DNA of 64,000 nt from Bacteroidia bacterium (GCA_018058135.1 JAGPCK010000001.1:60617-124616), one strand, 5' to 3'; counted from the stretch's first letter, positions 1,525 to 22,552 are shown. Notes: a model not told the origin generated them from the sequence alone. Translations and numbers: made by a program.

Positions 1525-1944
1525 ATGACATCAACATCAAGCATTACCGTAGAGGTGAAAGTAAACGCTCCCCTCGAAAAAGTGTGGGACTACTGGACCA
1601 ACCCGCAACACATAGTGAATTGGAACTATGCCTCTGAGGACTGGCATGCCCCAAATGCCAGCAACGATTTACGGGTGGGCGGAAAATTCAATTCACGCAT
1701 GGAAGCCAAAGACGGTTCAATGGGTTTTGATTTTGAAGGCGAATACACCAGGGTGGAACAACACCTCGAAATTGAATATGTGCTGGCAGATGCGCGTAAA
1801 GTAAACATTCGCTTTGACCCTAATGGAAAAGAAACCACAGTTACCGAAACCTTCGACCCTGAAAACGAAAACACACTTGAATTACAACGAGCCGGCTGGC
1901 AAGCTATTCTGGATAATTTTAAGAGGTATACGGAGAGTAACTAG
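1525..1944 (+). CDS. SRPBCC-family protein (AHSA1 / polyketide-cyclase-like fold)
   Basis: 139 aa with the KVWDYWTNPQHIVNWN motif typical of the Aha1/SRPBCC superfamily. ATG start. Confidence 0.6.
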   Translation: MTSTSSITVEVKVNAPLEKVWDYWTNPQHIVNWNYASEDWHAPNASNDLRVGGKFNSRMEAKDGSMGFDFEGEYTRVEQHLEIEYVLADARKVNIRFDPNGKETTVTETFDPENENTLELQRAGWQAILDNFKRYTESN

Positions 1945-2014: not shown

Positions 2015-2704
2015 ATGAAAAGTAGATCGCGTAACATGAATTACAAAAAATTTGTTGAAGCGAAAAAGTATCTCTTCATTGATTACCTTAGCTTAGTTCT
2101 AATTCTATTAGGCCTAACCAGTTTATCTTGTAATAATGATGACAGGACGATTGTGTCCTTTTCTTTTCAGCAAAAAGACACCGTTCCATCCTTTGAAGTA
2201 GTTTTTATCAAATCCGATAATGCTTACCAACTATCTTCCTATTCAAGCAAACAGAAAAAAACGTATGAAATCTCTTATTTGGAAGATGACTTTGGGATAC
2301 ATATTATACAAAAAGATACTAAGAGAAAAACTGCATATAGCTTCTCACAATTGGATACCACTTTCTTACATGAAGTGATTTGTCCTGCATTTTTCGACTA
2401 TTCTTCGACCTTAAAAAGAGTATTCTACATTCCACATAGGCAGCAGAGATTAGTAGTTTACGAGTTTGTTTGCAATTCACGCCAGGGAGAAGATAGTGAA
2501 TTCATGTTATACTATTTAAAGGAACATGGTTTTGTAGCTTTGTTCAATGCAAACTTCGATGCTCTTTTCAGAGTCAAAAAAATACTCAACACTAATGACA
2601 CACACATTAGTTCAAACATTCTTTTTGTATCAAATCATATTGCTGACAGTATTGAAACTACAAGAAAGTTATTGTTTGATAACTTAGGAGGTAAGCTTCC
2701 TTAG
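2015..2704 (+). CDS. Hypothetical AT-rich secreted protein or lipoprotein
   Basis: 229 aa with an N-terminal hydrophobic segment LVLILLGLTSLSC. No recognisable domain. An alternative ATG lies at 2036. Confidence 0.45.
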   Translation: MKSRSRNMNYKKFVEAKKYLFIDYLSLVLILLGLTSLSCNNDDRTIVSFSFQQKDTVPSFEVVFIKSDNAYQLSSYSSKQKKTYEISYLEDDFGIHIIQKDTKRKTAYSFSQLDTTFLHEVICPAFFDYSSTLKRVFYIPHRQQRLVVYEFVCNSRQGEDSEFMLYYLKEHGFVALFNANFDALFRVKKILNTNDTHISSNILFVSNHIADSIETTRKLLFDNLGGKLP

Positions 2705-2724: not shown

Positions 2725-2936
2725 TTGGTTGGCAAGAGAATCCGTCACGCAATGCGAAGAAATGAAACGGAATTTTATGTTGGCCTACGGGAACACGCCC
2801 AGTTGCAGGTAGCTGGTGGCCAGTTTGTCAATACCGTTTACAAAAGCTGCGGTTCGGAGGTCTTTAATTTCGCGGTTGTGGTTACGTATGTCAAACAATT
2901 CATTGGTGGCACCAATCATGGCATCTTCTATACCTG
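2725..2936 (-). pseudogene. Partial diverged copy A of the gdh 3' end (last ~53 codons plus ~95 bp downstream), about 90% identical to 15315..15553
   Basis: Direct alignment to the true gdh terminus. It would encode ..IGATNELFDIRNHNREIKDLRTAAFVNGIDKLATSYLQLGVFP* and shares the downstream string gaagaaatgaaa.ggaattttatgttgg.cctacgggaacac. The ORF track lists the 73-aa remnant at 2785..3006. Confidence 0.8.
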
Positions 2937-3046
2937 ATACATTGGCATTGAACAAATAATTTGTCTTAAAATTAAAGAAAATGTTGGCCATTTGTATGAC
3001 CAACATTTAACTTTTGTGATGATGTGAAAAATCAGGTTCCTTTGGA

Positions 3047-6000
3047 TTACTCTACCAAAAATCTGACAGAGGCCTGTGCAGAATTGCCTAATGTTTTCAC
3101 CCGCATATAATATATACCAGCGGCAGCACCCACTGGCACCATCACCTCTGTTTGGTTGTTGACTGGTTGCGTTGAAATAAGCTGCCCGAGTGCATTGTAG
3201 ATATCTATCTGCTCAACCGGCAATGCTGAAACTACTTTCACCATATTTCTGGCCGGATTAGGGAACAGGTTTACTGTTTGTTGAGATATCTCCGCAACTC
3301 CAGATGAAAGTGCATTCACAGGTTCGCAGGATGACAAGGATGAACAACCATTCAACGTTACCTCCACCTTGTAGCTGCCGCTCACCAGCACTTTCAGGTA
3401 ACTGGAGGTTGCGCCATTCACCGGCTGATTGTTGGCACAATTCATCCACTGATAATTTGCCCCTGTTGTTTCAACTACACGAATGGTATCCTGACTCACT
3501 GAAATGGTAGCTAAGGGCAAAGGAGTTACTCCCATTTCAACCACATTGCTGGTGGCCGTTGAAGTACTTAAGCAACCCGCATTGCTGGTCATGGTGCAAC
3601 TTACCTTATCCTGATTAGCCAGACTACTGCTGCTGAATGTCGCTGCATTATTGCCTGCATTTGTACCATTTATTTTCCATTGATAGGAGGGTAAGGATCC
3701 TCCATTAACAGGGGTGGCTGTAAAGGCAACCAGCGTACCCGCACAAACATCCGAATCAGAAACAGATACAGATACTTCAGGTGTAACTGTTCCTGTGGTG
3801 AAGGTGATGAGGTTGCTTGTAGCGGCATTGGTAGTAACACATCCGGCACTGCTGGTCATGATACAACTCACTTGATCCGTTGCAGTAAGGCCGGATGAGG
3901 AGAATCCCGATGAGTCATTACCCACATTTGCGCTATTGATTCTCCATTGATAGGATGGTGTAGCACCTCCATTAACAGGGGTGGCATTGAAGTACACCGT
4001 TACCCCTGTGCACAGCACCGTTTGACTGGCCGAAATAGTGATTACTGGAGTTGATGGGGCGTTTACCGTAATGGTTACAGCTGTAGAGGTGGCATTTGTG
4101 GGACTTGCACAAGCCGCATTTGAAGTGAGCACACAGGTAACCACATCTCCATTGGCGAGTGTACTTGTTACCAGTGATGCTGCATTACTACTTGTATTAT
4201 TGCCATTTACTTTCCACTGGTAAGCCGGACTACTTCCTTCGTTGGTAACGGTTGCTGTGAAAGTAACCGACTCCCCTTGACAAATATTGGAGGATGAAGC
4301 CGAAACCGATATGGTTGGGGTTACTGCAGAGGTAACACTAACCGTAACGGCATTGCTGGTGGCCGTAGAGGAGGTAAGGCAACTTGCATTGCTCGTCATT
4401 ACACACGTAATCTGGTCGCCATTCGTCAGGTTATTCACCACAAAACTGTCGGCATTGGTGCCTGTGTTGTTGCCATTCACTTTCCATTGATAAGATGGTG
4501 AAGTACCTCCATTGGTTGGGGTAGCATAAAACGCTACGCTTGCGCCAGAACAAATAGTCGTACTTGCTGAGGTGACACTTACCGAAGGTGTGATTGACTG
4601 GGTGGTGAGTGTAATGGCATTGCTGGTGGATGTGGTGGTGGTAACACAAGCTGCGTTGCTGGTCATCACACAGGTTACCTGATCGTTGTTTGAAAAAGTA
4701 TTTGATGCAAAGGTGGCTTGATTGGCGCCTGCATTATTCCCATTTACTTTCCATTGATAAGACGGTGAAGCACCTCCGTTTGATGGTGTTGCTGTAAAAG
4801 TAACCGTTGCACCGCTGCAAATAGAAGTCTGACTGGCTGTAATACTCACCGTTGGTGTAGTAACTGATTGCACCGTCATGGTTACTGCATTTGAAGTAAC
4901 GTTCATAGGGTTTGCACATGCAGCCGAAGAAGTAACCACGCAGGTTACTACCTGACCATTGGTGAGGCTGCTTGTTGTAAAAGAGGCACTGTTTGTTCCC
5001 GCATTCACTGTATCTGTTTTCCATTGATAAGATGGGCTTACTCCTCCATTGGTTACAGTTGCATTAAATGTTGCACTAGCACCACTACAAATAGTGGTCT
5101 GCTGTGTGTTGATACTTACAGAAGGAGTTACATTGGCATTTACAGTAACAGTGATTGTATTGCTGGTGGCGGTAGAGGTGGTAAGGCAACTGGCATTGCT
5201 GGTCATCGCACAAGTTACCTGATCATTATTGGCCAGTGTAGTTGAGGTAAATGTTGCCGAGTTAGTACCAACATTGTTCCCATTCACTTTCCATTGATAA
5301 GAAGGTGCCGTACCTCCATTTGTTGGGGAAGCCGTGAACGTAACAGAGGTACCCGCACACAAAGTAGCACTGCCTGTACTAATGTTTAGTGAAGGTGTTA
5401 TAGACTGGGTGGTCATGGTGATGACATTGCTTGTAGCTGTGGCAGAAGTAACACAACTTGCACTGCTGGTCATTACACAACTTACCTGATCATTATTCGC
5501 TAATGTATTTGTTGAAAATGTAACTGAGTTGGTACCTGCATTGTTCCCGTTAATTTTCCATTGGTAAGATGGGGTTGTTCCTCCGTTGGAAGGTGTAGCT
5601 GTAAACGTAACTGTGACCCCTGAACAAATAGATGTCTGACTTGCCGTAATACTTACCGATGGTGTAACAGGCTGGGAAACTGTTACAGTAATCTGATTTG
5701 AAACAGCCAATGAAGGAATGGGACAAGGCAGGCTCGACACCATGGTACATCTAATGGAATCACCAGTAGCCAGATTTGATGGCGTGTAGGTGGCAGAGTT
5801 GGTGCCAACATTTGTTCCGTTTCGTTTCCACTGAAACACCGGACTCGTTCCTCCATTGGTGGGATTTGCCGTGAAGGTTACCTGACTGCCTGCACATACT
5901 GTAGTTTGTGAAGCACTGATTTGAACGGAAACATTCACGGTAGCCGAAGAAGTAACATTTAAACTGGCTGCAGAGGAGTTTCCACATGAGTTCACTGCAC

Positions 6001-8701
6001 GAACTGTAATGGTACCTCCGCTTGTACCCGGAGTAAGCGTTATGCTGTCGTTGGTAGATGTACCTGTCCACCCGGCAGGTCGTGTCCATGAATAAGAAGA
6101 GGCTCCGTTAACAGGAGTTGTGTAATACAATTTGGGGGAGAGTGCACATGTGCTCGTATCGCCATAAATAGCACCGGGTGCAGCAGGTGTTGTATTAACG
6201 GTGAGGGTAGCAGACGATGATGTGTCTGAACCTTCGGGACTGTAGCCAATACATCGGAATAAATGTCCGCCCATGGCAAGCGTAACTCCCGTAACCACTA
6301 CGCTACTGCTATTGGTTCCGCTGTACACACTCGAATTTTTCAGATGTACAAATCCTCCGCCACTATCAATTTGCCACTGATAAAAAGCAGTGGCGGAAGC
6401 CGTGAGAGTGACACTAAACGTTGCGTTAAGTCCAACACAGGCACTCACCGATGTAGGGTTTCCGATAGAAGGATTAAAATTAGAATAGGTATAACAGCTA
6501 TTATAAGTGCTTGCATTGGTGGTATTGCCTGTACCCAACTGACCGCTGGTATTTAACCCTGAAAGACAATTTTGGTTACGGTTAGTTTTTATTATCCCGC
6601 TAAAACCGGCACCAGCCGTAACGGCCTGTACTTGGGAGGCATTGTTAACCGGAAAAATTCTGCCGGTTGTAGAGTTATCCCCCAACTGACCATAGGTGTT
6701 TGCGCCCCAACCCCAACCACTGCCGGTATTGCGTATGGCGATACAAAAATCAGCTCCGGCATCAACATCCATCCAGCACGTATCATTGGTTGGTGTTTTG
6801 GTTACAATTTTAATTGGTGTGGTTCGGGTTACTGTTGTGCTGTCACCCAATTGTCCATTGCTGTTTAATCCCCAACTCCATAATGAACCATCGCAACGTA
6901 AACCCACAGAATGCGAGTTACCCCCGCTGGCTTTAAGCCATAGTGCTGATGTGCCAATTTGTGCCGGTGCAGTTCTGTCGGTGGTTGCGCCATCGCCCAG
7001 TTGCGAACTGTTGTTGCGTCCCCAGGCCCAGATGGTGCCGTTTGATCTTACTGCGAGACTATGGTCTAATCCTGTAGCAATACTTACCCATGAATTTGCC
7101 GTTCCAATCTGTATAGGTGCAGTGCGGGTGGTAACAGTTCCATCACCCAGTTGTCCATAGGTATTTCTACCCCAGGCCCACAAGGTACCATCTGAACGAA
7201 GTCCCAGGCTATGATTGTCGCCTGCAGCAATGGCTACCCAATTATTTGCTGTTCCAATTTGAAGAGGAACACTCTTATTTACTGTTGTACCATCACCTAA
7301 TTGACCAAATGTATTTTTGCCCCAGGCCCATAAGGTACCATCAGCTCTGATGCCGAGCGAAAAGGAACTTCCTGTTGCTACACATTTCCAATTAGACGCT
7401 GTGCCGATGGTAACACGGGTAAGTCTGTTGGTAGAAGAAGCATCACCCAACTCTCCAGATGAATTTTGCCCCCAGGCCAGCAGCCTGCCACTGTTTGCTA
7501 TCATCAGGTTGTGAGCATAGCCTGAAGCATGTTCTACCCAACCAAAGCTAGTGCTTACCGGAACAAAATATGAAAAACTACTGGTTGATCCTTTACCCAA
7601 TTGACCTACCGCACTGGTGCCTGCTCCATTCAACACACCGTTTGCCTGCAAGGCAAATGAAAAACCATCCCCAATTGTAATGGCTACTACATTTAAAAAA
7701 TTTATTGCTTGAACAAATGAAGTTCTGCCAGCAACCGTTCCATCGGCCAATTGTCCATCGTTGTTGTTACCCGAACCCCACACCGTTCCATCTGCTTTTA
7801 ATGCAAGCGTATGTGAAGCACCTGCCTGCACCATTACCCATGTGCTTAAAGAACCTATCTGATAATAACCGTTGGTTACATTGCCTGTACCCAACTGACC
7901 CCAACTGTTGCTACCCCACCCCCACAAAGTACCATTGCTTTTGATACCCATGCTGTGTTGTTCTCCAGCCGATACTTGTACCCAGTTATTATCTGTACCA
8001 ACCTGCACAGGAGTTACATTTGTTGTAGCCGTGCCTGTGCCGAGTTTATTGAATATATTGTCGCCCCAACCCCATAAGGTACCGTTTGACTTAATGGCAA
8101 GTGAATGTGTATAGCCTGCCGTGATATAAATCCAGTCGTTGGCAGTACCTAAGCGAACCGGTGCATTTCTGTTGGTAGTTGAACCATCACCCACCTGACC
8201 ATTGTTGTTAAATCCCCACCCCCATAAACTGCCGTCAGCTTTTAGTGCAAGCGAGTGCCCATTGCCTGCTGCCACACTAATCCAATCATTGGCGGTACCA
8301 ATGCGCACCGGAAAACTGCGGCTGGTAGTAGAGCCATCACCCACCTGACCGTAGTTGTTTCTTCCCCAACCCCACAAACTGCCATCAGCTCGAACGGCTA
8401 GTGAATGCGAAATGCCCGCACTCACTACACTCCAGTTGGTGGCTGAGCCAATTTTTTTTGGCGCCAGTCTGTTAGTTGTGCTGCTATCTCCCAATTGTCC
8501 AAAGTCGTTTTTACCCCAGGCCCATAACTCGCCTCTGCGCACCTCCAAACAAAAAGCATTACCTGCATCTGCACGCTGTGCTGCCACATTGCAAGAGCCT
8601 GATTTCTGAATATTGCGCCTCGATGCCTGTGCCCACACATCAGTTGTGGCCAGAAACATAAGTAATGTATGCAACAACAAATATTTTCTAATCCCTTTCA
8701 T
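3047..8701 (-). CDS. 1884-aa secreted T9SS cargo. Signal peptide, RCC1-type beta-propeller repeats, about 10 tandem Ig-like repeats (YQW(K/R)xNG ... C ... C), a pre-CTD Ig-like module, and a type A T9SS C-terminal sorting domain.
   Basis: N-terminus MKGIRKYLLLHTLLMFLATTDVWAQ. RCC1 signatures repeat as WGWGxNxxGQLGDGST, e.g. WAWGKNDFGQLGDSST and WGWGRNNYGQVGDGST. Roughly 95-aa repeats such as SPSYQWKVNGNNVGTNSATF...DQVTCxMTSNASC recur at about 70% aa identity. The C-terminus LFPNPARNMVKVV...GIYYMRVK is a Por_Secre_tail. Confidence 0.85.
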   Translation of the reverse strand: MKGIRKYLLLHTLLMFLATTDVWAQASRRNIQKSGSCNVAAQRADAGNAFCLEVRRGELWAWGKNDFGQLGDSSTTNRLAPKKIGSATNWSVVSAGISHSLAVRADGSLWGWGRNNYGQVGDGSTTSRSFPVRIGTANDWISVAAGNGHSLALKADGSLWGWGFNNNGQVGDGSTTNRNAPVRLGTANDWIYITAGYTHSLAIKSNGTLWGWGDNIFNKLGTGTATTNVTPVQVGTDNNWVQVSAGEQHSMGIKSNGTLWGWGSNSWGQLGTGNVTNGYYQIGSLSTWVMVQAGASHTLALKADGTVWGSGNNNDGQLADGTVAGRTSFVQAINFLNVVAITIGDGFSFALQANGVLNGAGTSAVGQLGKGSTSSFSYFVPVSTSFGWVEHASGYAHNLMIANSGRLLAWGQNSSGELGDASSTNRLTRVTIGTASNWKCVATGSSFSLGIRADGTLWAWGKNTFGQLGDGTTVNKSVPLQIGTANNWVAIAAGDNHSLGLRSDGTLWAWGRNTYGQLGDGTVTTRTAPIQIGTANSWVSIATGLDHSLAVRSNGTIWAWGRNNSSQLGDGATTDRTAPAQIGTSALWLKASGGNSHSVGLRCDGSLWSWGLNSNGQLGDSTTVTRTTPIKIVTKTPTNDTCWMDVDAGADFCIAIRNTGSGWGWGANTYGQLGDNSTTGRIFPVNNASQVQAVTAGAGFSGIIKTNRNQNCLSGLNTSGQLGTGNTTNASTYNSCYTYSNFNPSIGNPTSVSACVGLNATFSVTLTASATAFYQWQIDSGGGFVHLKNSSVYSGTNSSSVVVTGVTLAMGGHLFRCIGYSPEGSDTSSSATLTVNTTPAAPGAIYGDTSTCALSPKLYYTTPVNGASSYSWTRPAGWTGTSTNDSITLTPGTSGGTITVRAVNSCGNSSAASLNVTSSATVNVSVQISASQTTVCAGSQVTFTANPTNGGTSPVFQWKRNGTNVGTNSATYTPSNLATGDSIRCTMVSSLPCPIPSLAVSNQITVTVSQPVTPSVSITASQTSICSGVTVTFTATPSNGGTTPSYQWKINGNNAGTNSVTFSTNTLANNDQVSCVMTSSASCVTSATATSNVITMTTQSITPSLNISTGSATLCAGTSVTFTASPTNGGTAPSYQWKVNGNNVGTNSATFTSTTLANNDQVTCAMTSNASCLTTSTATSNTITVTVNANVTPSVSINTQQTTICSGASATFNATVTNGGVSPSYQWKTDTVNAGTNSASFTTSSLTNGQVVTCVVTSSAACANPMNVTSNAVTMTVQSVTTPTVSITASQTSICSGATVTFTATPSNGGASPSYQWKVNGNNAGANQATFASNTFSNNDQVTCVMTSNAACVTTTTSTSNAITLTTQSITPSVSVTSASTTICSGASVAFYATPTNGGTSPSYQWKVNGNNTGTNADSFVVNNLTNGDQITCVMTSNASCLTSSTATSNAVTVSVTSAVTPTISVSASSSNICQGESVTFTATVTNEGSSPAYQWKVNGNNTSSNAASLVTSTLANGDVVTCVLTSNAACASPTNATSTAVTITVNAPSTPVITISASQTVLCTGVTVYFNATPVNGGATPSYQWRINSANVGNDSSGFSSSGLTATDQVSCIMTSSAGCVTTNAATSNLITFTTGTVTPEVSVSVSDSDVCAGTLVAFTATPVNGGSLPSYQWKINGTNAGNNAATFSSSSLANQDKVSCTMTSNAGCLSTSTATSNVVEMGVTPLPLATISVSQDTIRVVETTGANYQWMNCANNQPVNGATSSYLKVLVSGSYKVEVTLNGCSSLSSCEPVNALSSGVAEISQQTVNLFPNPARNMVKVVSALPVEQIDIYNALGQLISTQPVNNQTEVMVPVGAAAGIYYMRVKTLGNSAQASVRFLVE
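3420..6320. repeat. Tandem ~290 bp coding repeats (the Ig-like units) inside the 3047..8701 gene
   Basis: About 10 repeat units are visible at protein level. Several are near-identical at nucleotide level, for example the SPSYQWKVNGNN units. Coordinates are approximate. Confidence 0.7.
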
Positions 8702-8726
8702 GACTTTATATTTTAATCACTTACTA

Positions 8727-10463
8727 TTAATTGCTCACTTTACAAAACCGGATATACGCAATACCATCATTGCCTTTTACTTGCAGGTAATAGACTCCGG
8801 GCTGCAATGCAGACACGTCAATAGATTTTGTGTGGGACATGCTTTTTTCATATGTCCTTCCTTCCATAGTTAAGATGGTAACATGTTGAACAGGAAAATT
8901 GGCCGATACCTGCAACCAATTCGTCACAGGGTTTGGATATACGCTTACGCGAAGGTTTGATGCTTCTGCAATTCCCGTGGCCGGATATGAAATACAAAGG
9001 CTCGTATCAATACAACCGCCCTGATTTATCACAACACAATAAGAACCTATGGTTGGTGGAAGAAATTCTTTAGATGTTGCCCCTGAAACAGGACTATACC
9101 CATTCCCACAATCCAGCCACTGATAGCTTGCCCTGTCCTGTTCTGAAATGAGCCTTCCTGACTGATAACTTACCTGTTTATTATTGATTCCTGTACATGT
9201 GCTGATAATCTGCAAGGCTACCAAATCCATATCCGAATTTTCGAACACATGACCTCCAATGATCAAACGGTTATTGCCAATAGCGTACATTCCTATAGTT
9301 TTTGTAGTCAAAGCGCTTGGAGAATAAATAGCAATAGAGGTATCCCTGAAACCATTGTCGCGGCTACCATCGGGAAGTAGTTTTCCAACGGCCATATAAC
9401 TGTTCCAACCATTAATTTGCTGAATATTTCCTGCATAATAAATATGGCCAGTGGCATCGGAGTGTAAACCATTCACCGCACCTGAATATCCAGATGGGTA
9501 GGTGAATGTCCCGCTATCTGCAAACAATGTATCGAGCGTTCCGTTGTTATTGAATCTTGACACCATCAAGTCATACCCATTTGCAGTGGCCACTCTACCT
9601 CCAACCAATATTTTGCCATCCGCTTGCAACAGCAGGCGATAGGCGTTAGAAGGTAGTGAATGAAATGCATGAAACCCTTTGGCGTTAAATGATGAATCAG
9701 GCTCACCACTTGCATGTAATTGAGCGAGCATCAAGACTTCAATTCCTGAAGTCAAACTTTGATTAATGTCACCAACTACCAGCATCTTACCTGAAGGAAG
9801 CAACTGCACATCATGTATACTTTTCCTTCTGCCTTTTTCTGACATTGGAACATACTTTAAGCCGGCATTCCCAAATGTAGCATCAGGTGTAGCATTGGGT
9901 AGTAAACGTAAAAGAAAAGCCGATGAGTCGGCCCTGCGGCCACCTTCACCGCCAATCAGAATTTTGTTGCCCGGTAATATGCGCAACACCCTATAGTTTG
10001 CATCAGGAACCTGTAACTGGTAATGGCCGCTCCCCTGGTTAAAACTTGTATCTAACGACCCATTAACATGGTACCTGCGTATAAACCATAAAAAAGCACT
10101 CTGCGAAACATAACCTCCCAACACAACAATTTTCCCATCCGATTGTATGCCTATATGACGAAATGAATCGTCATTATCGTTATTATACCTCACCTGTCCG
10201 TTTGTCCCGAAAGCACTGTCTGGTTTTCCATCGCTGGTAAAGCGGGCGAGTACGGCATCCGATCCCAGAACACCATTGTTAATTCTTCCGGCAATTAGCA
10301 CTTTATTATCCTGTTGAACCGCCACACTAAAACACTCATCATACCCCTGCACCTTCAGGTAAGCATAACCCGATTCTCCAAAACCCATATCTGGCAAACC
10401 TGATTGGGCAAACAATGCAATATTGAAAAAAAGTGTACTTAGAATAAATAGAAATGACTTCAT
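8727..10463 (-). CDS. Delta-60 repeat beta-propeller protein with pre-CTD Ig-like module and T9SS type A C-terminal sorting domain
   Basis: Signal peptide MKSFLFILSTLFFNIALFAQ, starting at the ATG at 10463. The track's 10496 start is a TTG. Delta-60-type motifs recur: NGSLDTSFN, PDATFGNAG, PDSSFNAKG, NGTLDTLFADSG. C-terminus VYPNPVTNWLQVS...GVYYLQVK. The gene ends 25 bp upstream of the start of the 1884-aa gene, so the two are probably co-transcribed. Confidence 0.8.
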   Translation of the reverse strand: MKSFLFILSTLFFNIALFAQSGLPDMGFGESGYAYLKVQGYDECFSVAVQQDNKVLIAGRINNGVLGSDAVLARFTSDGKPDSAFGTNGQVRYNNDNDDSFRHIGIQSDGKIVVLGGYVSQSAFLWFIRRYHVNGSLDTSFNQGSGHYQLQVPDANYRVLRILPGNKILIGGEGGRRADSSAFLLRLLPNATPDATFGNAGLKYVPMSEKGRRKSIHDVQLLPSGKMLVVGDINQSLTSGIEVLMLAQLHASGEPDSSFNAKGFHAFHSLPSNAYRLLLQADGKILVGGRVATANGYDLMVSRFNNNGTLDTLFADSGTFTYPSGYSGAVNGLHSDATGHIYYAGNIQQINGWNSYMAVGKLLPDGSRDNGFRDTSIAIYSPSALTTKTIGMYAIGNNRLIIGGHVFENSDMDLVALQIISTCTGINNKQVSYQSGRLISEQDRASYQWLDCGNGYSPVSGATSKEFLPPTIGSYCVVINQGGCIDTSLCISYPATGIAEASNLRVSVYPNPVTNWLQVSANFPVQHVTILTMEGRTYEKSMSHTKSIDVSALQPGVYYLQVKGNDGIAYIRFCKVSN

Positions 10464-10628
10464 AAGCTGTGTTTTTGATAGCAAAATTAAGAGCAAGTAA
10501 GGGCAGGCACTTATACTTGTAATTCAACTTACCATTCGGCACATAAACGAGGACAATAGGTCGTTTTTTTTGTAAATCCGTACTGGTCATTTGAACCGGA
10601 TAATGAAAAACCATTGTTTCTTTGCAAC

Positions 10629-13520
10629 ATGGTGATTACACCGAAGGCTTTTCTTTTCGCAGGTTTGATGCTTTTTGTTTTCAGCACAGCATTGTGCCAG
10701 GTTAACTACAAAAACCTGACACGTGCACACGGACTTTCATCAGACAATGTATATTTTAGTTTATGCGACTCCAAAGGACTAATGTGGTTTGGAACCGATA
10801 ATGGCGTTTGTCGATATGATGGAGCGGAGTTCAAAATTTTTGATATTGATGATGGCATTACCGACAACGAAGTATTCAGAATATTTGAAGACTCCAAAGG
10901 GCGCATCTGGATACTACCTTACAACGGACAACTTTGTTTTATCCTCAATAACCAGGTTTATCATACGGGGAATACACCATGGCTGCGTGGGTTTAATAAC
11001 AAAGACTTCTTTACCGACATGGTTGAAGATGGTGAAGGCAACATCTGGTTTTTTAAGGAACAAAATCAAGAGTTCTGCATATTGGAAAACAATCTACAGG
11101 TAAAATATGGTTCACTGCCATTTAAATCATTCTATAATAACCATGTATTGTTACACGGAATCCACTACATTTTTTACAACACCAAAATCGCTAAGAAAAA
11201 GTGGGTGTACACCGTGGCCATGCTCAACCGGGAACTGAAACCCTTGACAACTTGCAGCACTAATCTATACTGCCGTTACTTTTTTACGCACCAGGATTCA
11301 CTTCGGTTTGGATGCTTTTTCGATGACAAGGAAGAAGACAATCGGATGATAAGCAGCAACAGCATTAACTTTGAAAAGGCCATTCGTGAAAAAGTGAACC
11401 CTATTTCTTTGCTTGGAAGTAGAAAAATAAATGATGCGGCATCCTTATTTCACAACCTTATTTTAACTTCTGAAAATGGCGCAATCTTGATTAAACCTCA
11501 TGAACAAGAAACATGGTTACCCGGAATTTTTGTATCTTCTGTTTCCATTGATAAAGAGAACGGAGTGTGGCTCACCACTAAAAACAATGGCGTATTTTAC
11601 TATCCGGCAAGCCTTACCAAACCCGTTCACTCCATCACCGACCCAATTTACCTGATCAAACAAAATCCGCTAAAACCACAGGAACTTTATGCAGCCAGTA
11701 ATTCCTTTATTTACCGATTGAATGGTAAAAAAACTGAAAAAATAAGTTTACCAGCATTTGTCGGTAAAAATGAACCCATCAGTGATATTATTTTTCTTAA
11801 CAATGGACACTTGGTATTGAGCAACGGAAACGGAGTATATTTTTACAATGGAAAAAAATTCCAACTTTCAGAAGGGAAGGCAGGTACCAAACAAATGTTG
11901 TATATGAACGACACGCTTTACTTTGCTCGTTCAAACAGTATTACCCTACAAGCGGCTGCTACTCTGCTCCAGCCTTACGATTTACACCATCCATTATTTA
12001 TCCAACTACATAACAACCGGGCATTGTGTTTGGTGCCTGCCAATCAGAATGAGTTTCTTTTCGGAAACAATTTTGGCGCATGGCGAATCAGCAAAACTGG
12101 CAAAACGGTTCATATTCCCGGCATTCAAAACCGCATTCACCGCATAGCTGTTTCTCCCAAAAGTTACACCGCTTATTGCTCAGACATTAATGGTGTATAC
12201 ATTCAATACAAAAATGAGCTGCATCATTACACCAACCAAAACGGTTTAACCAGCAACAGCGTTACATCAGCCTGCTTTGATGCCAACAACAACCTTTGGG
12301 TTGCAACGCCTAATGGCATCTCGCGCATTCATACCAAAACCCATAATGTAATCAACTACCACCTGTTCAGTGGAAACCGGGATGAAAAAATATACGACCT
12401 TTATTTAAACTCCGACACCACACTGCTATTGGCCACCGGCAGCGGATTGTTTGAATTTAACACCACACAAAAACCGTCTGATACCAAACCGGATATTATT
12501 ATCACGCAAATCAAAGTAAACGGACAAAACAGGGAACTCTCTACAATGGCTTCCCTTTCATCTGTTGAAAATACTATTGAAATTGCTCTTACTGCCATCT
12601 CCTATGCATTGCCACAACCCGATTTCTTTTACAGAATAGGGGGAAACGGTTCGCAATGGCAGAAAATCAGTGGCCGGGTACTCACCTTTGCCAACCTGCC
12701 TTCGGGGAGCTATGATATTCACATCCGCTGCAAAAGTATAAATGGATTATGGAGCAACACAAGAGCCATACACTTTGAAATTCATGCGCCTATTTATAAA
12801 AAATGGTGGTTTATGTGGAGCACTCTTGCAGTGCTTGCTTCCACCATAGTGCTTATCATTTACCATTGGCAAAAACGCATTCGTAAAAACAAAGAAATTG
12901 AGTTACTCCTGTCGGAAACACGACAGAAAGCCATGAGGGCACAGTTAAATCCGCACTTCGTTTTTAACGCACTCAACTCTATCCAGTTTTTGTACATGAG
13001 TCACCGCGAAGAACAGGCCATTGAATACCTGAATAAATTTTCAGTAGTACTTAGAAATATTCTTAAGCATGCCGAACAAACTTACATCCGCATTGACGAA
13101 GAAATTGAAAACATCAGAAGTTACCTTGACATAGAACAACTTAGGCTGAATGACAGGTTCACCTATTCCATTGAAACAGCCAACGAAATCGACCCCTATG
13201 CATGCCTCATCCCATCCATGCTCCTCCAGCCCTTTATAGAAAATTCCATCTGGCATGGCTTTAAAGGAATCAACTATATAGGTATGATTGATATCCGCAT
13301 CGCAAAACACAATGAACAATACCTTACCATCACCATCAGCGACAACGGTGTAGGTTTCGACACAACAGTGGCTCCCGACCCTTCCGTTTCAAAAGGAAGG
13401 CACCTGATAGAAAACAGAATTGCTGCACTCAACAAACTCAATAAACTGCCCATTCGTGTAAATACAGCAAGCACTAAGTCGGGTACCATCATCCATATTT
13501 TATTCCCTATTCAATACTGA
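10629..13520 (+). CDS. Sensor histidine kinase, LytS/YehU type: periplasmic two-component-regulator propeller repeats plus Y_Y_Y domain, one transmembrane segment, His_kinase (PF06580-like) and HATPase_c
   Basis: Signal MVITPKAFLFAGLMLFVFSTALCQ at the ATG at 10629; the track's 10614 is a TTG. It has the transmembrane segment WWFMWSTLAVLASTIVLIIY, the H-box LNPHFVFNALNSIQFL, the N-box IENSIWHG and the G1 box SDNGVGF. Confidence 0.85.
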   Translation: MVITPKAFLFAGLMLFVFSTALCQVNYKNLTRAHGLSSDNVYFSLCDSKGLMWFGTDNGVCRYDGAEFKIFDIDDGITDNEVFRIFEDSKGRIWILPYNGQLCFILNNQVYHTGNTPWLRGFNNKDFFTDMVEDGEGNIWFFKEQNQEFCILENNLQVKYGSLPFKSFYNNHVLLHGIHYIFYNTKIAKKKWVYTVAMLNRELKPLTTCSTNLYCRYFFTHQDSLRFGCFFDDKEEDNRMISSNSINFEKAIREKVNPISLLGSRKINDAASLFHNLILTSENGAILIKPHEQETWLPGIFVSSVSIDKENGVWLTTKNNGVFYYPASLTKPVHSITDPIYLIKQNPLKPQELYAASNSFIYRLNGKKTEKISLPAFVGKNEPISDIIFLNNGHLVLSNGNGVYFYNGKKFQLSEGKAGTKQMLYMNDTLYFARSNSITLQAAATLLQPYDLHHPLFIQLHNNRALCLVPANQNEFLFGNNFGAWRISKTGKTVHIPGIQNRIHRIAVSPKSYTAYCSDINGVYIQYKNELHHYTNQNGLTSNSVTSACFDANNNLWVATPNGISRIHTKTHNVINYHLFSGNRDEKIYDLYLNSDTTLLLATGSGLFEFNTTQKPSDTKPDIIITQIKVNGQNRELSTMASLSSVENTIEIALTAISYALPQPDFFYRIGGNGSQWQKISGRVLTFANLPSGSYDIHIRCKSINGLWSNTRAIHFEIHAPIYKKWWFMWSTLAVLASTIVLIIYHWQKRIRKNKEIELLLSETRQKAMRAQLNPHFVFNALNSIQFLYMSHREEQAIEYLNKFSVVLRNILKHAEQTYIRIDEEIENIRSYLDIEQLRLNDRFTYSIETANEIDPYACLIPSMLLQPFIENSIWHGFKGINYIGMIDIRIAKHNEQYLTITISDNGVGFDTTVAPDPSVSKGRHLIENRIAALNKLNKLPIRVNTASTKSGTIIHILFPIQY

Positions 13521-13521
13521 T

Positions 13522-14268
13522 ATGATTAAAGCATTGGTTATAGATGATGAACAAATGGCGCGCGACACCATTGAACTGTTCATTAAAAAATATACCCCCG
13601 ACATACAACTCATTGGCAAAGCAGGCTCGGTAACAGAAGGTGTGCGGCTCATACAGCAAACCCCGCCCGACATTTTATTTCTCGATATCAACATGCCTGA
13701 GAAAAAGGGGTTCGCTATATTTGACGAGATTGATCTGAGTCATATCAAAGTAATTTTTACCACTGCATACAGTGAATATGCCATCAAGGCCATCAACCTC
13801 TCAGCAAGTTACTACCTGCTTAAACCCATCTCTCCGGTAGAATTTAAAAAAGCTGTAGAAAAAACACTCGAAAAAATAAATCAACAGGTTTCTGATGTAA
13901 ACACCATTGCTTTTTTGAAAAACCTGATTGGACAAAACCAGCCCCATCCCAAACAACTACTCATCAACATCAGGCAGGGATATGAGCTCATCAAAACAGA
14001 AGAGATCATGTACCTCGAGGGTGAAAAAAATTATACCTGGATTCACCATTCAGATAAAAAACACCTAGTGGCTAAGCCACTCAAAGATTACGAAGAATTC
14101 CTCGACCCAGGTCAATTTTTCCGCATACACCAATCATTTCTCATCAACCGCCATTTCATCAAAAAAATTTACAACACCAAACCCGATCAGGTGGAACTTC
14201 ACAACAACACCCGCATCAACATCTCGCGCGACAAAAAAAGAAAATTTATTGAGTGGCTGGAACGGTAA
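13522..14268 (+). CDS. LytTR-family response regulator (REC + LytTR DNA-binding domain)
   Basis: MIKALVIDDEQ..DILFLDINMP receiver, and a C-terminal LytTR domain (IMYLEGEKNYTWIHHSDKKHLVAKPLKDYEEFLDPGQFFRIHQSFLIN). Its start lies 1 nt after the kinase stop. Confidence 0.9.
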   Translation: MIKALVIDDEQMARDTIELFIKKYTPDIQLIGKAGSVTEGVRLIQQTPPDILFLDINMPEKKGFAIFDEIDLSHIKVIFTTAYSEYAIKAINLSASYYLLKPISPVEFKKAVEKTLEKINQQVSDVNTIAFLKNLIGQNQPHPKQLLINIRQGYELIKTEEIMYLEGEKNYTWIHHSDKKHLVAKPLKDYEEFLDPGQFFRIHQSFLINRHFIKKIYNTKPDQVELHNNTRINISRDKKRKFIEWLER

Positions 14269-14315
14269 AATGAAAGTTACTTAAACAGAAATAAAATCTA
14301 ATTGTATGCCTCCCT

Positions 14316-14393
14316 GCTACGGGAACACACCCAGTTGCATGTAGCTGGTGGCCAGTTTGTCAATACCGTTTACAAAAGCTGCAATGCGCAGGT
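14316..14393 (-). repeat. Partial copy B of the gdh 3' end, ~78 bp
   Basis: ctacgggaacacacccagttgca.gtagctggtggccagtttgtcaataccgtttacaaaagctgc..tgcgcaggtc matches 15391..15470 almost exactly and then diverges. Confidence 0.8.
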
Positions 14394-14460
14394 CGCGGGG
14401 ACGTCAAACACGGGCAATTGTAGCTAATGGTATAACACGCTGCTACAAATATGAACATTA

Positions 14461-15297
14461 CTAAAGGCTAGGTATGCCAGTTTCATCTGTAAAAATACGG
14501 GGTACTACTCTAATTATTTTCTCCTCCTTCCGTTCATTTTTCTCAAACCCTCTTTTTTTTACTTTAGGCTCAATTAAGGTTTCTTCTTCATAAGAATTTG
14601 AAATAAATAAAGGAATACACTCTGGCTCAAACTGTACTGTGTATGTTAAAAAATCAATTTTGCTTGAAGTCAATCTTTTATCATACGCACTAGAGTCAGA
14701 GCATAATATATCTATTGATTTGAATATTGCAACGCGTAAGTTATGATTATTTATTTGAACAGAATCGTAAGTGATTCTTTTTTTTCCCTTAATATGTTTG
14801 AAATCGTATGGATTACATATTTCGATTAAGTTCATTTCTCTGTAGAAATAATTGCAAGATAATCTTACTTCGAATTTATATTGTGAGAATGGCATTACTT
14901 TGACAAACTTATACCAATCAAATGCATCGTAAAGATGCATTATTTTTTTACCTGATGATATATAAAAGTGACCATAGGTTGGTGTAATTGATAAAAAATA
15001 TTCCTTGCTGTAAAAATCATATTGATGAACCACCGGTGAGTAATTATATATTGCTTCATCAATCATTCCTGTATATAGGTAATTTACTTCTTGAGTATTA
15101 TTTACTATTAAAAAAGTGTTAACACTATCATTATTGTCGTCTTTTAAGTAAATAAGATGAACTCCTTCAGTGTAATTTGAATCAAGCCCTTCTTTCGCAA
15201 CTATCGTTTCACATCCATGTGTCTGGGCAAATGCATTTATCCCAAGGCTAATCTGCAGACAACACAAAAAAATATAGACTAATTTATTATACCTCAT
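14461..15297 (-). CDS. Hypothetical secreted protein, very AT-rich (single-gene islet between gdh copies B and C)
   Basis: ATG at 15297 gives MRYNKLVYIFLCCLQISLGINAFAQ, a signal peptide. The track's longer 15447 start runs into the gdh 3' end and is spurious. I recognise no domain. Base composition is sharply lower in GC than the neighbours. Confidence 0.55.
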   Translation of the reverse strand: MRYNKLVYIFLCCLQISLGINAFAQTHGCETIVAKEGLDSNYTEGVHLIYLKDDNNDSVNTFLIVNNTQEVNYLYTGMIDEAIYNYSPVVHQYDFYSKEYFLSITPTYGHFYISSGKKIMHLYDAFDWYKFVKVMPFSQYKFEVRLSCNYFYREMNLIEICNPYDFKHIKGKKRITYDSVQINNHNLRVAIFKSIDILCSDSSAYDKRLTSSKIDFLTYTVQFEPECIPLFISNSYEEETLIEPKVKKRGFEKNERKEEKIIRVVPRIFTDETGIPSL

Positions 15298-15400
15298 GTC
15301 AATAATATTATTGTCTTTGGTTGGCGAAGACGGCAACCACGGACTAAGAAGGGGATCCATCACGCAAACAGAAGAAATGAAATGGAATTTTATGTTGGGC

Positions 15401-16825
15401 CTACGGGAACACACCCAGTTGCAGGTAGCTGGTGGCCAGTTTGTCAATACCGTTTACAAAAGCTGCTGTGCGCAGGTCTTTGATTTCGCGGTTGTGGTTG
15501 CGTATGTCAAACAGTTCATTGGTGGCACCAATCATGGTATCTTCTAAACCTGAGCGCACCAAATCAATTTCATCGGCACCGTGAATGAGTATGCTTTTTT
15601 GTTTTGCATCAACGCTATTGCCGGTTAACTGTTCAATGGTATCTACCAGTCTGCGCATGGCACCTTCTTCAAACCTTCGCTCCATACGTCCGAAACGTAC
15701 GTGCGACAAATTGCGCAACCATTCAAAGTAGGACACCGTTACACCACCTGCATTCAGGTATAAATCGGGCAGCAACATGATGTTACGCTCCAACAGAATT
15801 TTTTCTGCTGCGAAAGTTGTGGGGCCGTTAGCACCCTCAGCAATTACTTTGGCTTTTATGCGGGGCGCATTTTCATGAGTTATCTGGTTTTCCAGGGCAG
15901 CGGGTATTAACACATCGCATTCCTGTTCCAGTAATTCCATCGAATTGGTGAAATTTTTTGCACCCGGAAAATCAAGTATGGAACGTGTGTTTTTGCGGTG
16001 CTGAAATACTTCTTCTACATCCAGGCCATCGGCATTATATATTCCACCTTCATATTCGGCAATGCCTACTATAACGGCACCACCTTCCTGACAAAATTTG
16101 GCTGCGTAGTAACCTACATTACCTAAACCTTGTACTATAATCCGCTTGCCTTCTATGCCCGTGGTGAGACCTATTTTAGTCATCTCTTCCTTGTTGCTCA
16201 GGCACTCGCGAATACCGTAAAAAATACCCAGACCTGTGGCTTCTGTGCGGCCGTTAATTCCGCCTTGTCCAACGGGTTTTCCTGTTACGCAACCCAGCGC
16301 ATTAATATCATCGGGTTTAAAGGCAGCGTAAGTATCGGCAATCCAGGCCATCTCACGTGGTCCGGTGCCATAATCAGGAGCAGGCACATCTACAGCCGGG
16401 CCAATCATGTCTCTGCGAATTAATTCCGTGGCAAACCTGCGGGTTATTTTCTCCAATTGTGCGGGTGAATATTTTTTGGGGTCCACCTTTACTCCACCTT
16501 TGGCACCTCCAAAAGGTACGTTTACAACGGCACATTTAAATGTCATGAGCGTTGCTAAGGCTTTTACCTCGTCCACGTCTACCATTTCGCTGAACCGAAT
16601 ACCGCCTTTTACGGGTGTTTTATGCTGGCTGTGCTGAACGCGGATGCCTTCAAACACTTCAATATTCTCTCCTATTTTTACCGGAAAATTAGTCACGTAA
16701 ACACTGTTGCAGATTTTGATTTGTTCCAGCAAACCCTTGTCGTGCTTAGTATAGCGTGCAGCATTGTCGAAATAGTGCAGTACATCGTTGTAAAAACCAA
16801 GACCTGCATTTTTAGCGTGGCTCAT
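15401..16825 (-). CDS. gdhA: Glutamate dehydrogenase (Glu/Leu/Phe/Val dehydrogenase family)
   Basis: 474 aa, ..VNVPFGGAKGGVKVDPKKYSPAQLEKITRRFATEL.. and GLGNVGYYAAKF (Rossmann fold). ATG at 16825. Confidence 0.9.
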   Translation of the reverse strand: MSHAKNAGLGFYNDVLHYFDNAARYTKHDKGLLEQIKICNSVYVTNFPVKIGENIEVFEGIRVQHSQHKTPVKGGIRFSEMVDVDEVKALATLMTFKCAVVNVPFGGAKGGVKVDPKKYSPAQLEKITRRFATELIRRDMIGPAVDVPAPDYGTGPREMAWIADTYAAFKPDDINALGCVTGKPVGQGGINGRTEATGLGIFYGIRECLSNKEEMTKIGLTTGIEGKRIIVQGLGNVGYYAAKFCQEGGAVIVGIAEYEGGIYNADGLDVEEVFQHRKNTRSILDFPGAKNFTNSMELLEQECDVLIPAALENQITHENAPRIKAKVIAEGANGPTTFAAEKILLERNIMLLPDLYLNAGGVTVSYFEWLRNLSHVRFGRMERRFEEGAMRRLVDTIEQLTGNSVDAKQKSILIHGADEIDLVRSGLEDTMIGATNELFDIRNHNREIKDLRTAAFVNGIDKLATSYLQLGVFP

Positions 16826-18938: not shown

Positions 18939-18941
18939 CTG

Positions 18942-19049
18942 TTATTTCTTTTCCAGAAAATCCATCAGCTCCCGTTTATACGATTCAACACCCAACACAT
19001 CACTCACCTGATAATAATCTCCTGTGTTGGTGGTTACTATATCCCTCGG
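18942..19049 (-). pseudogene. Remnant copy of the DUF4476 gene 3' end (last ~31 codons, ~88% identical to 22608..22700)
   Basis: Reverse-strand reading gives ..IVTTNTGDYYQVSDVLGVESYKRELMDFLEKK*, against ..TTNTGDYYQLSDVLGVESYKRELMEFLEKK* for the intact gene. An in-frame stop 35 codons upstream truncates it. Confidence 0.8.
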
Positions 19050-19132
19050 TTAGCTTGGGAGAGTATTGCCGATTTTAGGCATATAATGAGACCTACCCCC
19101 TTAAGCTGTTTTTGTAAGCTTTTGCTAAATTA

Positions 19133-19834: not shown

Positions 19835-19846
19835 TTAAACTTTTAA

Positions 19847-20749: not shown

Positions 20750-20755
20750 TCAAGA

Positions 20756-21979: not shown

Positions 21980-22150
21980 ACATTCTTAATTAAATCTATA
22001 TTCTGAACTTTACTTTAACATTTCAAACACTATAACGAAAGTACACAGTAGTGAAATGACGAACCCTCCTAAAACAGGAAGAAAAGCCTTAAATAGCAAA
22101 GAGGATATCTAAAGGCAGGTAAATAATCTGCATTTAGCGATTAATGAAAA

Positions 22151-22552
22151 TCAAGCTACTTTACTATCAGCAAAAAAAGATGGTGGGTGAAAGATTTTCT
22201 TAAATGGCCCAGATGGAATAAAAAACAAAAGGGGTGAAAAAGGAGTATTTCTGAAACAAAGAAAAATTGAGGGAGTTGTGACTTTGCCTGAATTCAAAAA
22301 TAACAGAAGTTCTTTTAAGTCTTTTGCTTCAAAGGGCAGCTTCTTCTCTTGATTATCTTGTTGTTTTAGTTGTTTTTTCAGATGACACTTTCCTCTACAT
22401 TGCTGCTCAGGTTTGTTCTTATTAATACAAAGTTCTGAAACTATATAATCTTTGTTGATTATATAATAGCCAAAAATGCCTGTCTTAACAAAGCACTGAA
22501 GACTAAATGCACAAATGAGTAATATGACAATAGATTGTCTCACAAAGTGCAA
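22151..22552 (-). CDS. Hypothetical Lys/Cys-rich small protein; existence uncertain
   Basis: 133-aa ORF with a TTG start only, no internal Met, and a signal-like N-terminus. Weak support. Confidence 0.25.
   Translation of the reverse strand: MHFVRQSIVILLICAFSLQCFVKTGIFGYYIINKDYIVSELCINKNKPEQQCRGKCHLKKQLKQQDNQEKKLPFEAKDLKELLLFLNSGKVTTPSIFLCFRNTPFSPLLFFIPSGPFKKIFHPPSFFADSKVA

Follow-up and report, generated by a model that had tools for sequence, protein, structure and literature searches.

Copies of the gdh 3' end as probable scars of repeated accessory-gene exchange between related Bacteroidia strains

Chromosomal integration hot spots lie between core genes, where cargo is swapped by homologous recombination in the flanks, mostly without mobility genes. 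Double homologous crossovers are normally scarless. Tandem accretion of ICE/CIME elements at a gene 3' end, as by streptococcal elements in fda, depends on identical att cores and on one or more integrase-bearing partners. The e14 and phage 21 elements insert within the 3' end of the metabolic gene icd, supply a substitute end, and leave a C-terminal pseudogene fragment (icdC) at the distal edge (PMC13626634); the system for site-specific recombination is carried by e14 itself, and SOS induction triggers its excision. In the displacement arrays proposed to arise by homology-facilitated illegitimate recombination (HFIR), in the T6SS of Vibrio cholerae and in Rhs, a conserved stretch serves as anchor and the other end joins non-homologously. 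The resident 3' part is driven downstream and kept as an orphan fragment, arrays are nested, and no integrase takes part (PMC5361080; PMC3240628).

Here we describe a locus at the 3' end of gdh in a 64-kb window (the whole stretch of Bacteroidia DNA analyzed, 64,000 nucleotides). It shares with core-gene hot spots many alternative contents at one site and recombination tracts that end in the flanks. With ICE/CIME accretion it shares blocks in series, separated by gene-end direct repeats. The insertion within a metabolic gene 3' end, the substitute end and the distal C-terminal fragment recall e14, and all of the HFIR array features listed above appear to recur. The features of the locus are given in Table 1.

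Table 1. Coordinates of features at the gdh and DUF4476 gene ends, in window positions.
Feature	Coordinates	Strand	Remarks
SRPBCC/AHSA1 gene	1525..1944	+	Pfam; convergent core gene, other side of hot spot
229-aa ORF (222 aa per NCBI)	2015..2704	+	AT-rich ORFan; hydrophobic N-terminal segment; no Pfam match
Copy A, displaced gdh end	2734..2937	-	153 coding nt + stop (2785-2937), ~51 nt native-type spacer
Island 1 (11.4 kb)	2938..14286	both	between B and A; Pfam on contents
RCC1/PKD T9SS cargo protein	3047-8701	-	Pfam; T9SS tail
DUF5122 T9SS cargo protein	8727-10496	-	Pfam; T9SS tail
Reg_prop/Y_Y_Y/His_kinase propeller sensor kinase	10614-13520	+	Pfam
Response_reg-LytTR regulator	13522-14268	+	Pfam
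Copy B, displaced gdh end	14287..14394	-	78 coding nt (14317-14394), ~30 nt diverged post-stop spacer
44-nt junction segment between V5-colinear islet block and B	14395..14438	-	ends in truncated gdh-spacer hairpin copy (14395-14415)
Islet gene, 278 aa	14461..15297	-	AT-rich ORFan; apparent N-terminal hydrophobic leader; no Pfam match
Hairpin GTCCGTGGTTGCCGTCTTCGCCAACC, probable gdh terminator	15319..15344	-	behind gdh spacer, just upstream of islet start codon; kept after gdh in V4, V5
Copy C	15349..15553	-	final 153 nt of gdh, ~52 nt post-stop spacer; counterpart of A
Intact gdh, glutamate dehydrogenase, 474 aa	15401..16825	-	Pfam ELFV_dehydrog_N + ELFV_dehydrog; core gene, one side of hot spot
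Displaced 94-nt DUF4476 3' end	18941..19034	-	89% identical to intact end
Island 2 (3.6 kb), four-gene operon	19035..22606	-	Pfam; 133 aa, WD40 407 aa, Phenol_MetA_deg-like OMP 300 aa, 233 aa
Intact DUF4476 3' end, repeat copy next to island DNA	22607..22700	-	
Intact DUF4476 gene	22608-23768	-	

BLAST and alignment recovered three copies of the gdh 3' end, all in the same orientation and essentially where the first-pass annotation had placed them. Copy A was 91.7% identical to copy C over 205 bp (15349-15553; BLAST E = 2e-78), in agreement with the ~90% first given, and extended ~51 nt beyond the stop codon (2784 to 2734) instead of the ~95 nt once assigned to it. In the NCBI annotation it forms the C-terminal part of a 68-aa ORF. 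The coding part of copy B matched C at 75/78 positions (96%) and A at 92%; the ~95% match first reported held, and its coordinates moved by 1 nt, to 14317-14394. Gapped alignment lengthened B to 14287-14394 (87% over 108 bp, E = 5e-30), and its post-stop sequence was identical at 18/22 positions at the same offset from the stop, a value matched by 2/2000 shuffles. Because no further gdh-end copy was found in the 64-kb window, the repeat is not a dispersed family, a possibility that had been raised against the link to the islands.

Among strain-level relatives, the space between gdh and the SRPBCC gene, which lies beside feoAB in all variants, held at least seven different contents and is a hypervariable recombination hot spot. 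We observed only 190 bp in L002, one small gene in L001, a different sequence in L009, a 118-aa gene in V1 and an ExoX_C and DnaJ pair in V4. V5 (contigs L132/L133) carried the islet alone, V2 carried the island alone with a truncated copy A, and the window carried the nested islet and island plus the 229-aa gene. Downstream contents varied even among the contigs (at least 23) that encode an identical gdh protein. The repeat was single-copy in relatives: L002, V1, V4 and V5 each had one gdh end, and V2 had a single one where the window has C-islet-B, its intact gdh ending at the position of B. V2 and the window differed in precisely one repeat unit and the islet, and loss of the islet from the window arrangement could have given V2.

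The blocks had been read as a serial insertion by an att/integrase mechanism. The first part of that claim stands: the blocks are separate acquisitions at the gdh end with partial ends at their borders (island without islet in V2, islet without island in V5, neither in L002, V1 and V4). The mechanism is not supported. An empty site had been expected to show gdh directly followed by the 229-aa gene; that gene was missing from every relative spanning the site and found only beside this SRPBCC allele, so it is more variable cargo outside the conserved flank, and L002, for example, has just 190 bp at the site. Gene order without a gdh-end duplication, named beforehand as evidence against the footprint, occurred in V5, where the islet gene comes after gdh and no gdh fragment is present.

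The contents of the blocks were as first described: an AT-rich one-gene islet of ~1 kb between C and B, and an 11.4-kb island with two T9SS cargo genes and a LytTR two-component pair. GC content was 0.29 in the islet (14501-15000) and 0.38-0.50 in the island. Among 5.8 billion proteins, the sole homologue of the islet protein was one 95% identical cluster, encoded directly behind gdh in V5. There, the series gdh, spacer, hairpin and islet is colinear with window positions 14439-17772. Colinearity ends at 14439, and the islet/B junction reads CCCCGC/GACCTG. Island 1 was missing from L001, L002, V1, V4 and V5. V2 contigs had the same island/A junction as the window, with A trimmed to ~60 nt and fused to the native spacer, clearly a deletion product. 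We found no donor for island 1, whose kinase had one 99% identical cluster and, beyond it, a homologue at 36%. A single feature, the diverged gdh-type spacer, suggests that island 1 already lay beside gdh in a donor.

Identity between lineages was mosaic. Compared with a JGI lineage, island 1 was 98.0-98.9% and island 2 was 99.86% identical, whereas the core flanks were 95-97% identical. The islet was 97.5% identical to that of V5, whose gdh body was 93.6% identical. Overall, cargo (97.5-99.9%) exceeded flanking core genes (94-97%), and on these values it is younger than its flanks. The gdh-lpd sequences of V1 and V2 were identical, but across more than 8 kb their right flanks differed by 5%; V4 differed from V1 for 4 kb right of the hot spot and then matched it over 7 kb with 0 mismatches. 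Tracts of homologous recombination terminate within the flanking genes. The terminal 144 nt of the window gdh were identical to V1 and V2, though the gene body differed by 3.9%.

Copy A belonged to another gdh allele. It was nearest to V4 (95.6%, vs 91.7% to C), its allele states were common to V4, L002 and L009, and its spacer was 52/54 identical to the spacer behind the intact gdh of V4. Since A is a different allele, its greater divergence gives no date, and the earlier view that this divergence marks an older event and an order of accretion is not supported. The V4-type spacer of A and the diverged homologous spacer of B imply that homologous loci gave rise to the copies, their non-coding part as well.

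The DUF4476 gene end carries the same footprint as the gdh end. The displaced DUF4476 end was still joined to its native flank, the convergent gene at 18411-18938, as in L001 and V5. In L001, L002 and V5, which lack island 2, only 3 bp separate the two convergent genes. Homologues of island 2 were ~55% identical and lay in a Fur/CobW context; a donor-type locus, with this cargo behind its anchor gene and no fragment, was not found. The derived changes in the DUF4476 repeat were split, three falling in the 5' portion of the intact copy and about five in the 3' portion of the fragment. This split (chance ~0.04) could reflect a reciprocal crossover within the repeat.

We propose, with a probability of about 0.62, that the gdh-end copies are scars of repeated accessory-gene swapping between related strains, through a homologous crossover in the gene end and an illegitimate join (HFIR-type 3'-end displacement). 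Between gdh and SRPBCC, accessory cargo differs among related lineages of this Bacteroidia species, and cargo would pass among them as ordinary chromosomal DNA. The incoming piece would be the same locus of a related strain, comprising its gdh end, post-stop spacer and cargo. Homologous crossover within or at the gdh end and a non-homologous join on the far side would fix this piece; a circularised fragment entering through a single Campbell-type crossover would be equivalent. The non-homologous join would have fallen twice inside the resident gdh, at -155 (island) and at -78 (islet event), so that the resident end was pushed downstream as a dead fragment (A, B); the incoming end would have kept gdh intact. 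The same process may have acted at the DUF4476 gene end. Once formed, the direct repeats would permit loss by homologous recombination. Observed directly are the repeats, the recombination tracts, the mosaic identity, the absence of recombinase genes and the presence/absence polymorphism that every block displays, whereas the order of events, a linear or a circular substrate, and the uptake route are parts of this proposal that we infer.

Several observations are consistent with displacement. At 2937/2938, 14394/14395 and 19034/19035, unrelated DNA switches abruptly into mid-gene sequence. The displaced fragments A and DUF4476 stay contiguous with the resident flank, and A is not the allele of the functional end. 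V5 shows the donor-type arrangement that displacement predicts for the islet. The scars are irregular on both sides: displaced fragments start at -78 (B), -155 (A) and -92 (DUF4476), A is trimmed in V2, the hairpin at B is truncated, and in V5 the 3' end of SRPBCC, with the terminator region, is present in three direct copies.

An alternative that we consider unlikely is that the blocks are integrative elements of a site-specific (tyrosine) recombinase, with an attP carrying a replacement gdh 3' end and the recombinase lost or acting in trans, as in CIME-like tandem accretion. The direct repeats do consist of a gene 3' end that remains intact, the V2 difference of exactly one repeat unit plus islet would fit, and icd/icdC around e14 is a precedent with a long duplicated coding end (PMC13626634). 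The 42-nt block identical in A, B and C could act as a site-specific core, although a mismatch-free run this long is compatible with chance (~10 differences per 155 nt), and the DUF4476 split hints at a crossover within the repeat. However, Pfam searches of the island, islet and flank proteins gave no recombinase in any block, and in no variant did one lie less than 10 kb from the hot spot; a housekeeping XerD equivalog 40 kb away (55626-56525) was the sole tyrosine recombinase of the 64-kb window. No island protein had an integrase or transposase domain (Pfam), and no tRNA was found in the window, as the first-pass annotation had noted for the islands and their borders. Neither the identical att cores nor the integrase-bearing partner of ICE/CIME accretion was seen in the window or in the 10-kb flanks of the variants.

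The repeats themselves also argue against a tyrosine-integrase attL/attR footprint, as originally suggested, and set the locus apart from e14. Fragment lengths are unequal (78, 155 and 92 nt), and the gdh and DUF4476 ends have no shared motif, the best common string being a 7-mer no better than shuffles. Homology past the stop into non-coding DNA, with a V4-like spacer at A, fits a homologous chromosomal locus and not an element-borne mimic of a coding end. In the sister lineage V5 the islet lies behind gdh without a repeat, so cargo is not always repeat-bounded. The islet is one gene whose protein has no recognisable domain, and the blocks had no matches in viral contigs.

It is also improbable that the repeat-flanked blocks are integrase-free mobile cassettes, which would loop out between repeats, travel as circles or fragments and re-enter by a single crossover at the gdh or DUF4476 end, or that an unrecognised trans recombinase targets gene 3' ends. 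If true, the cassette reading would explain why the islands are 98-99.9% identical though their flanks differ by 3-5%, and why the island/A junction is identical in V2 and the window.

Still less credible is an old nested window form from which the simpler variants arose by deletion, with repeats made by local duplication instead of import. V2 is the window less one repeat unit, its A fragment is a deletion product, and direct repeats of 78-205 bp lend themselves well to RecA-mediated deletion. However, local duplication would yield one allele, whereas A differs and has a V4-type spacer and the B spacer matches at 18/22 only. The lower divergence of cargo than of flanks requires transfer, and the unrelated cargo of V1, V4, L001 and L009 could not be produced by deletion.

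We regard it as very improbable that a metagenome assembler stitched co-occurring strain haplotypes in series. The sequence comes from a MAG, the sampled metagenome assemblies contain several hot-spot alleles, Logan short-read contigs break within A and B, and one JGI contig carries the region twice in opposite orientation. The window was nevertheless 100% identical to NCBI contigs of two assemblies (including the Bacteroidia MAG GCA_018061185.1), a third (L100) spanned gdh, islet, B and island with 4 mismatches in 11.5 kb, and the island/A junction was present in many independent JGI contigs, which together make a one-off misassembly unlikely. The islet/B and island/A junctions are novel joins with no shared k-mer to mislead the graph, and the copies differ mutually by 4-8%. 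Transposon or IS insertion was rejected (no transposase, no inverted repeats at any block border, repeats of 78-205 bp diverged by 4-13%), and an integron-like cassette array or Xer-dependent element (IMEX) is not supported (no IntI, XerD 40 kb off, repeats that are gene ends without a common motif, and a hairpin that recurs at other cargo borders yet not at A, B or C).

HFIR-type displacement thus accounts best for the locus, and an explanation along the same lines has been put forward for T6SS effector/immunity arrays and Rhs C-terminal displacement (PMC5361080). The cases differ in that the anchor there is the constant 5' part of a toxin gene, whereas here it is a housekeeping 3' end (gdh, and also DUF4476). 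The cargo here consists of unrelated accessory genes. In contrast to immunity genes, the pieces displaced at this locus serve no obvious function. The recombination proposed for the gdh hot spot is itself inferred.

Under HFIR-type displacement, the apparent targeting of gene 3' ends would be survivorship, because joins inside a gene would persist only if the incoming DNA restores that gene. At the gdh and DUF4476 sites, three events appear to have left displaced gene ends, so that individual events can be traced, unlike at ordinary hot spots.

Repeat finding, MAFFT alignment and BLAST self-comparison of the window were used to define the copies of the gdh 3' end, and the three methods agreed. 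We observed three same-orientation copies in the 64-kb window, two displaced (A and B) and one within the intact gene (C), as the first-pass annotation had reported. Its coordinates essentially held, with B shifted by 1 nt; copy A, which it had extended ~95 nt past the stop codon, was measured to run ~51 nt beyond it. Aligned with gaps, copy B reached 14287 (87% over 108 bp, E = 5e-30) and still included ~30 nt beyond the stop, diverged but matching at 18/22 positions for that offset, a score reached by 2/2000 shuffles. A 42-nt block was common to all copies. The BLAST self-comparison showed no further gdh-end match in the 64 kb, and thus the gdh end is not a dispersed repeat. The contents of the islet (between C and B) and of island 1 (between B and A) were as previously described. 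We observed no tRNA in the window. An Rfam search of 1-24000 gave no match, and the conserved post-stop spacer is therefore not a known RNA. The NCBI-annotated 68-aa ORF at 2785-2991 ends in 51 residues that are the displaced gdh end of copy A; it is a gene fragment that would carry the label hypothetical protein.

Features of the gdh locus in the window, and hot-spot variants with their contents in gdh orientation, from gdh to the convergent SRPBCC gene
Feature	Position or loci	Description
gdh, intact	15401-16825	minus strand
Copy C	15349-15553	part of intact gdh plus ~52 nt after the stop
Copy A	2734-2937	91.7% identity to C over 205 bp, E = 2e-78
Copy B	14317-14394	75/78 identical to C
Islet gene	14461-15297	AT-rich, single gene, GC 0.29
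Island 1		11.4 kb; two T9SS-tail proteins, propeller/His_kinase sensor, LytTR regulator
Hot spot, L002		just 190 bp
Hot spot, L001		single small gene
Hot spot, L009		another, different sequence
Hot spot, V1	L122/L089	118-aa gene
Hot spot, V4	L124	ExoX_C-like and DnaJ genes
Hot spot, V5	L132/L133	islet gene only
Hot spot, V2	L090-L098, L126-L131	island 1 only
Hot spot, window		islet, B, island 1, A, 229-aa ORFan

The window was 100% identical to JAGOUS010000001.1 (GCA_018061185.1) and to a contig of GCA_020049755.1. A GCA_020050275.1 contig independently spanned gdh, the islet, B and the island with 4 mismatches in 11.5 kb, and the island/A junction was seen again in many JGI contigs. The joins between blocks are novel sequences without shared k-mers. 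Because of these novel joins and the recurrence in other assemblies, an assembly chimera is unlikely. In one JGI contig (Ga0558126_00190, 357 kb), a 20-kb region is present twice in opposite orientation (L122 and L123). The two copies show small differences: in one of them feoB is split and the SRPBCC gene truncated. The doubling probably arose during assembly, as a fold-back or from two haplotypes.

Exact matches to the gdh, FeoA, SRPBCC and cargo proteins served to retrieve the loci of relatives, which share about 94-98% nucleotide identity and belong to the same species or to sister lineages. Variant V2 has a single gdh end at the position of C-islet-B and differs from the window by precisely one unit. 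It shares the island/A junction with the window, and its copy A is shortened to ~60 nt (-155 to about -95; L127/L129 ~9270-9345) and joined directly to the native SRPBCC-proximal hairpin spacer. A was thus shortened by a secondary illegitimate deletion. Colinearity of V5 with window 14439-17772 covers gdh, the spacer, the hairpin and the islet gene, and there is no second gdh end. In V5 the SRPBCC 3' end/terminator region is present as three direct copies, interleaved with two hairpin copies (L132 3363-3744, and L133), which are scars on the opposite flank of the hot spot. The 2015-2704 gene, previously taken as conserved flank, was missing from every relative that spans the site and is itself cargo. 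An exact-protein look-up of the 229-aa ORF gave a single 1-kb contig because annotators call a 222-aa version. The small cargo proteins showed no mutual homology, which excludes a paralogous cassette family.

A hairpin, CGCTGGCGCGAGCTTGTAGCT(C/T)GTGC, adjoins the SRPBCC gene at the hot spot in L001, L002, L009, V2, V4 and V5, and is missing there in the window. The same hairpin follows both AT-rich small genes (34996-35430 and 35535-36098; products with a hydrophobic N-terminal leader) of a cassette-like block at 34812-36310, which has a 47-nt direct repeat at its borders (34812-34858 / 36264-36310). The region 36872-42003 holds two tandem paralogues encoding TPR-HisKA-HATPase kinases (36872-38764 and 38761-40656), which match at 77% over 210 bp, followed by a His_kinase/LytTR pair and a 2793-aa T9SS-tail protein. 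It echoes the island 1 theme of a LytTR two-component system with giant T9SS cargo.

We compared the gdh-end copies with the ends found in relatives. The post-stop spacer of A was 52/54 identical to the spacer after the intact V4 gdh, and the coding part of A had states in common with V4, L002, L009 and L001 as well as private changes. The spacer and hairpin of C matched those of V5 and V4. The spacer of B was that of V2, a diverged homologue of the same post-stop spacer. Tested with outgroups, A versus C showed no pattern indicating a crossover switch point. From these alignments, the copies are alleles of a homologous locus, non-coding part included. The retained spacer homology fits another lineage's copy of the locus; an element-borne mimic of the coding end has no reason to keep it. 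A transposon-type target duplication was ruled out, since the copies are different alleles and the divergence of the spacer greatly exceeds that of the coding part.

A second hot spot lies at the end of the DUF4476 gene. A 94-bp direct repeat of its 3' end (18941-19034 / 22607-22700, 89% identical) brackets a 3.6-kb four-gene block, island 2. This block is absent in L001, L002 and V5, where the two convergent genes are 3 bp apart, and the displaced DUF4476 copy is still attached to its native flank. The gdh and DUF4476 ends had nothing better in common than a 7-mer. The displaced fragments measured 78, 155 and 92 nt, plus other short pieces. The gene-end footprint is thus not specific to gdh, and scars occur at several gene ends. 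The island 2 module encodes a small protein, a WD40 protein, a Phenol_MetA_deg-like OMP and a DUF4625/Big_7-like protein. A search for an island 2 donor adjoining DUF4476 found none. Homologues with 48-59% identity form a conserved four-gene operon in other Bacteroidia (L139-L141, about 55% aa identity), which adjoins Fur, CobW GTPase, SCO1/SenC and cytochrome c; this neighbourhood suggests a metal-related function.

Segment identities between the window and the JGI lineage (relatives in JGI contigs) were 95-97% in the core flanks (gdh body 96.1%, lpd 96.7%, feo flank 95.5-96.5%), compared to 98.0-98.9% in island 1 and 99.86% in island 2. The islet was 97.5% identical to that of V5, and the gdh body just 93.6%. 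V1 and V2 were identical across gdh-lpd and 5% different over >8 kb of the opposite flank; V1 and V4 differed over 4 kb and were identical over the next 7 kb. The last 144 nt of gdh were identical in the window, V1 and V2, with the gene body 3.9% diverged. The identity contrast between cargo and flanks, together with these recombination tracts, indicates that lineages exchange cargo by homologous recombination, the breakpoints falling within the flanking genes or close to them. Scanning metagenomes with the last 52 aa of gdh yielded no orphan fragments elsewhere, only L009 and L010, both close relatives, and 78 distant gdh genes. An island 1 donor, sought via its sensor kinase, was not found: the only matches were a cluster at 99% identity and, on a 7-kb contig that lacks flanks, a homologue at 36%. 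In L138, from another organism, a 36% identical kinase is paired with a T9SS cargo gene.

Our best explanation (probability roughly 0.6) is that same-locus DNA from relatives recombined by homology within the gdh end on one side and was attached by an illegitimate join on the other. The incoming substrate could be a linear fragment or a circle. A join inside the resident gene end would leave that end as a displaced fragment, with the donor end keeping the gene whole. Joins destroying gdh would be lost, which would give an apparent preference for gene 3' ends. Once formed, the repeats would allow deletion by homologous recombination, and V2 may therefore be an ancestor or a descendant of the window arrangement.

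A trans-acting integrase, or one that has been lost, is an unlikely source of these repeats. The precise one-unit difference of V2 and the 42-nt block in all gdh-end copies are in keeping with it. So is a weak hint from the DUF4476 repeat: relative to outgroups, the intact copy has three derived changes within its first 28 nt and the fragment ~five within its last 60 nt, the pattern expected from a reciprocal crossover inside the repeat (chance ~0.04 by our count). However, no recombinase gene was present in any block or within 10 kb of the hot spot in any variant, no boundary was constant, and cargo also occurred without repeats. Of the att-like serial integration first proposed, serial insertion was partly right and the integrase reading is unsupported. 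The outcome resembles e14 in icd/icdC (PMC13626634); the gdh case departs from an integrative element on the same three points. The only tyrosine recombinase among window ORFs of at least 140 aa was a XerD equivalog (55626-56525; TIGR02225, 336.8 bits against a cutoff of 329.6), adjoining a type II dehydroquinase gene 40 kb from the hot spot. A trans-acting role for it was set aside on the grounds that the two repeated gene ends are unrelated and differ in length. We found no terminal inverted repeats, and the islet and 229-aa proteins matched nothing in viral contigs.

Displacement arrays have been proposed for V. cholerae T6SS effector/immunity loci and Rhs C-terminal tips (PMC5361080). The gdh hot spot follows their logic together with that of homology-facilitated illegitimate recombination (PMC5361080; PMC3240628). 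The process is of a kind already known, and this uncultured Bacteroidia lineage illustrates it clearly in nature; no new mechanism emerges from the window. Att-like gene-end duplications around islands need not mean an integrase, a caution for island and prophage prediction pipelines in which such repeats count as evidence. The window is an unusually legible natural record of accessory-gene turnover in an uncultured Bacteroidia population without mobile-element machinery, in which each event left a scar and intermediate alleles still co-exist.
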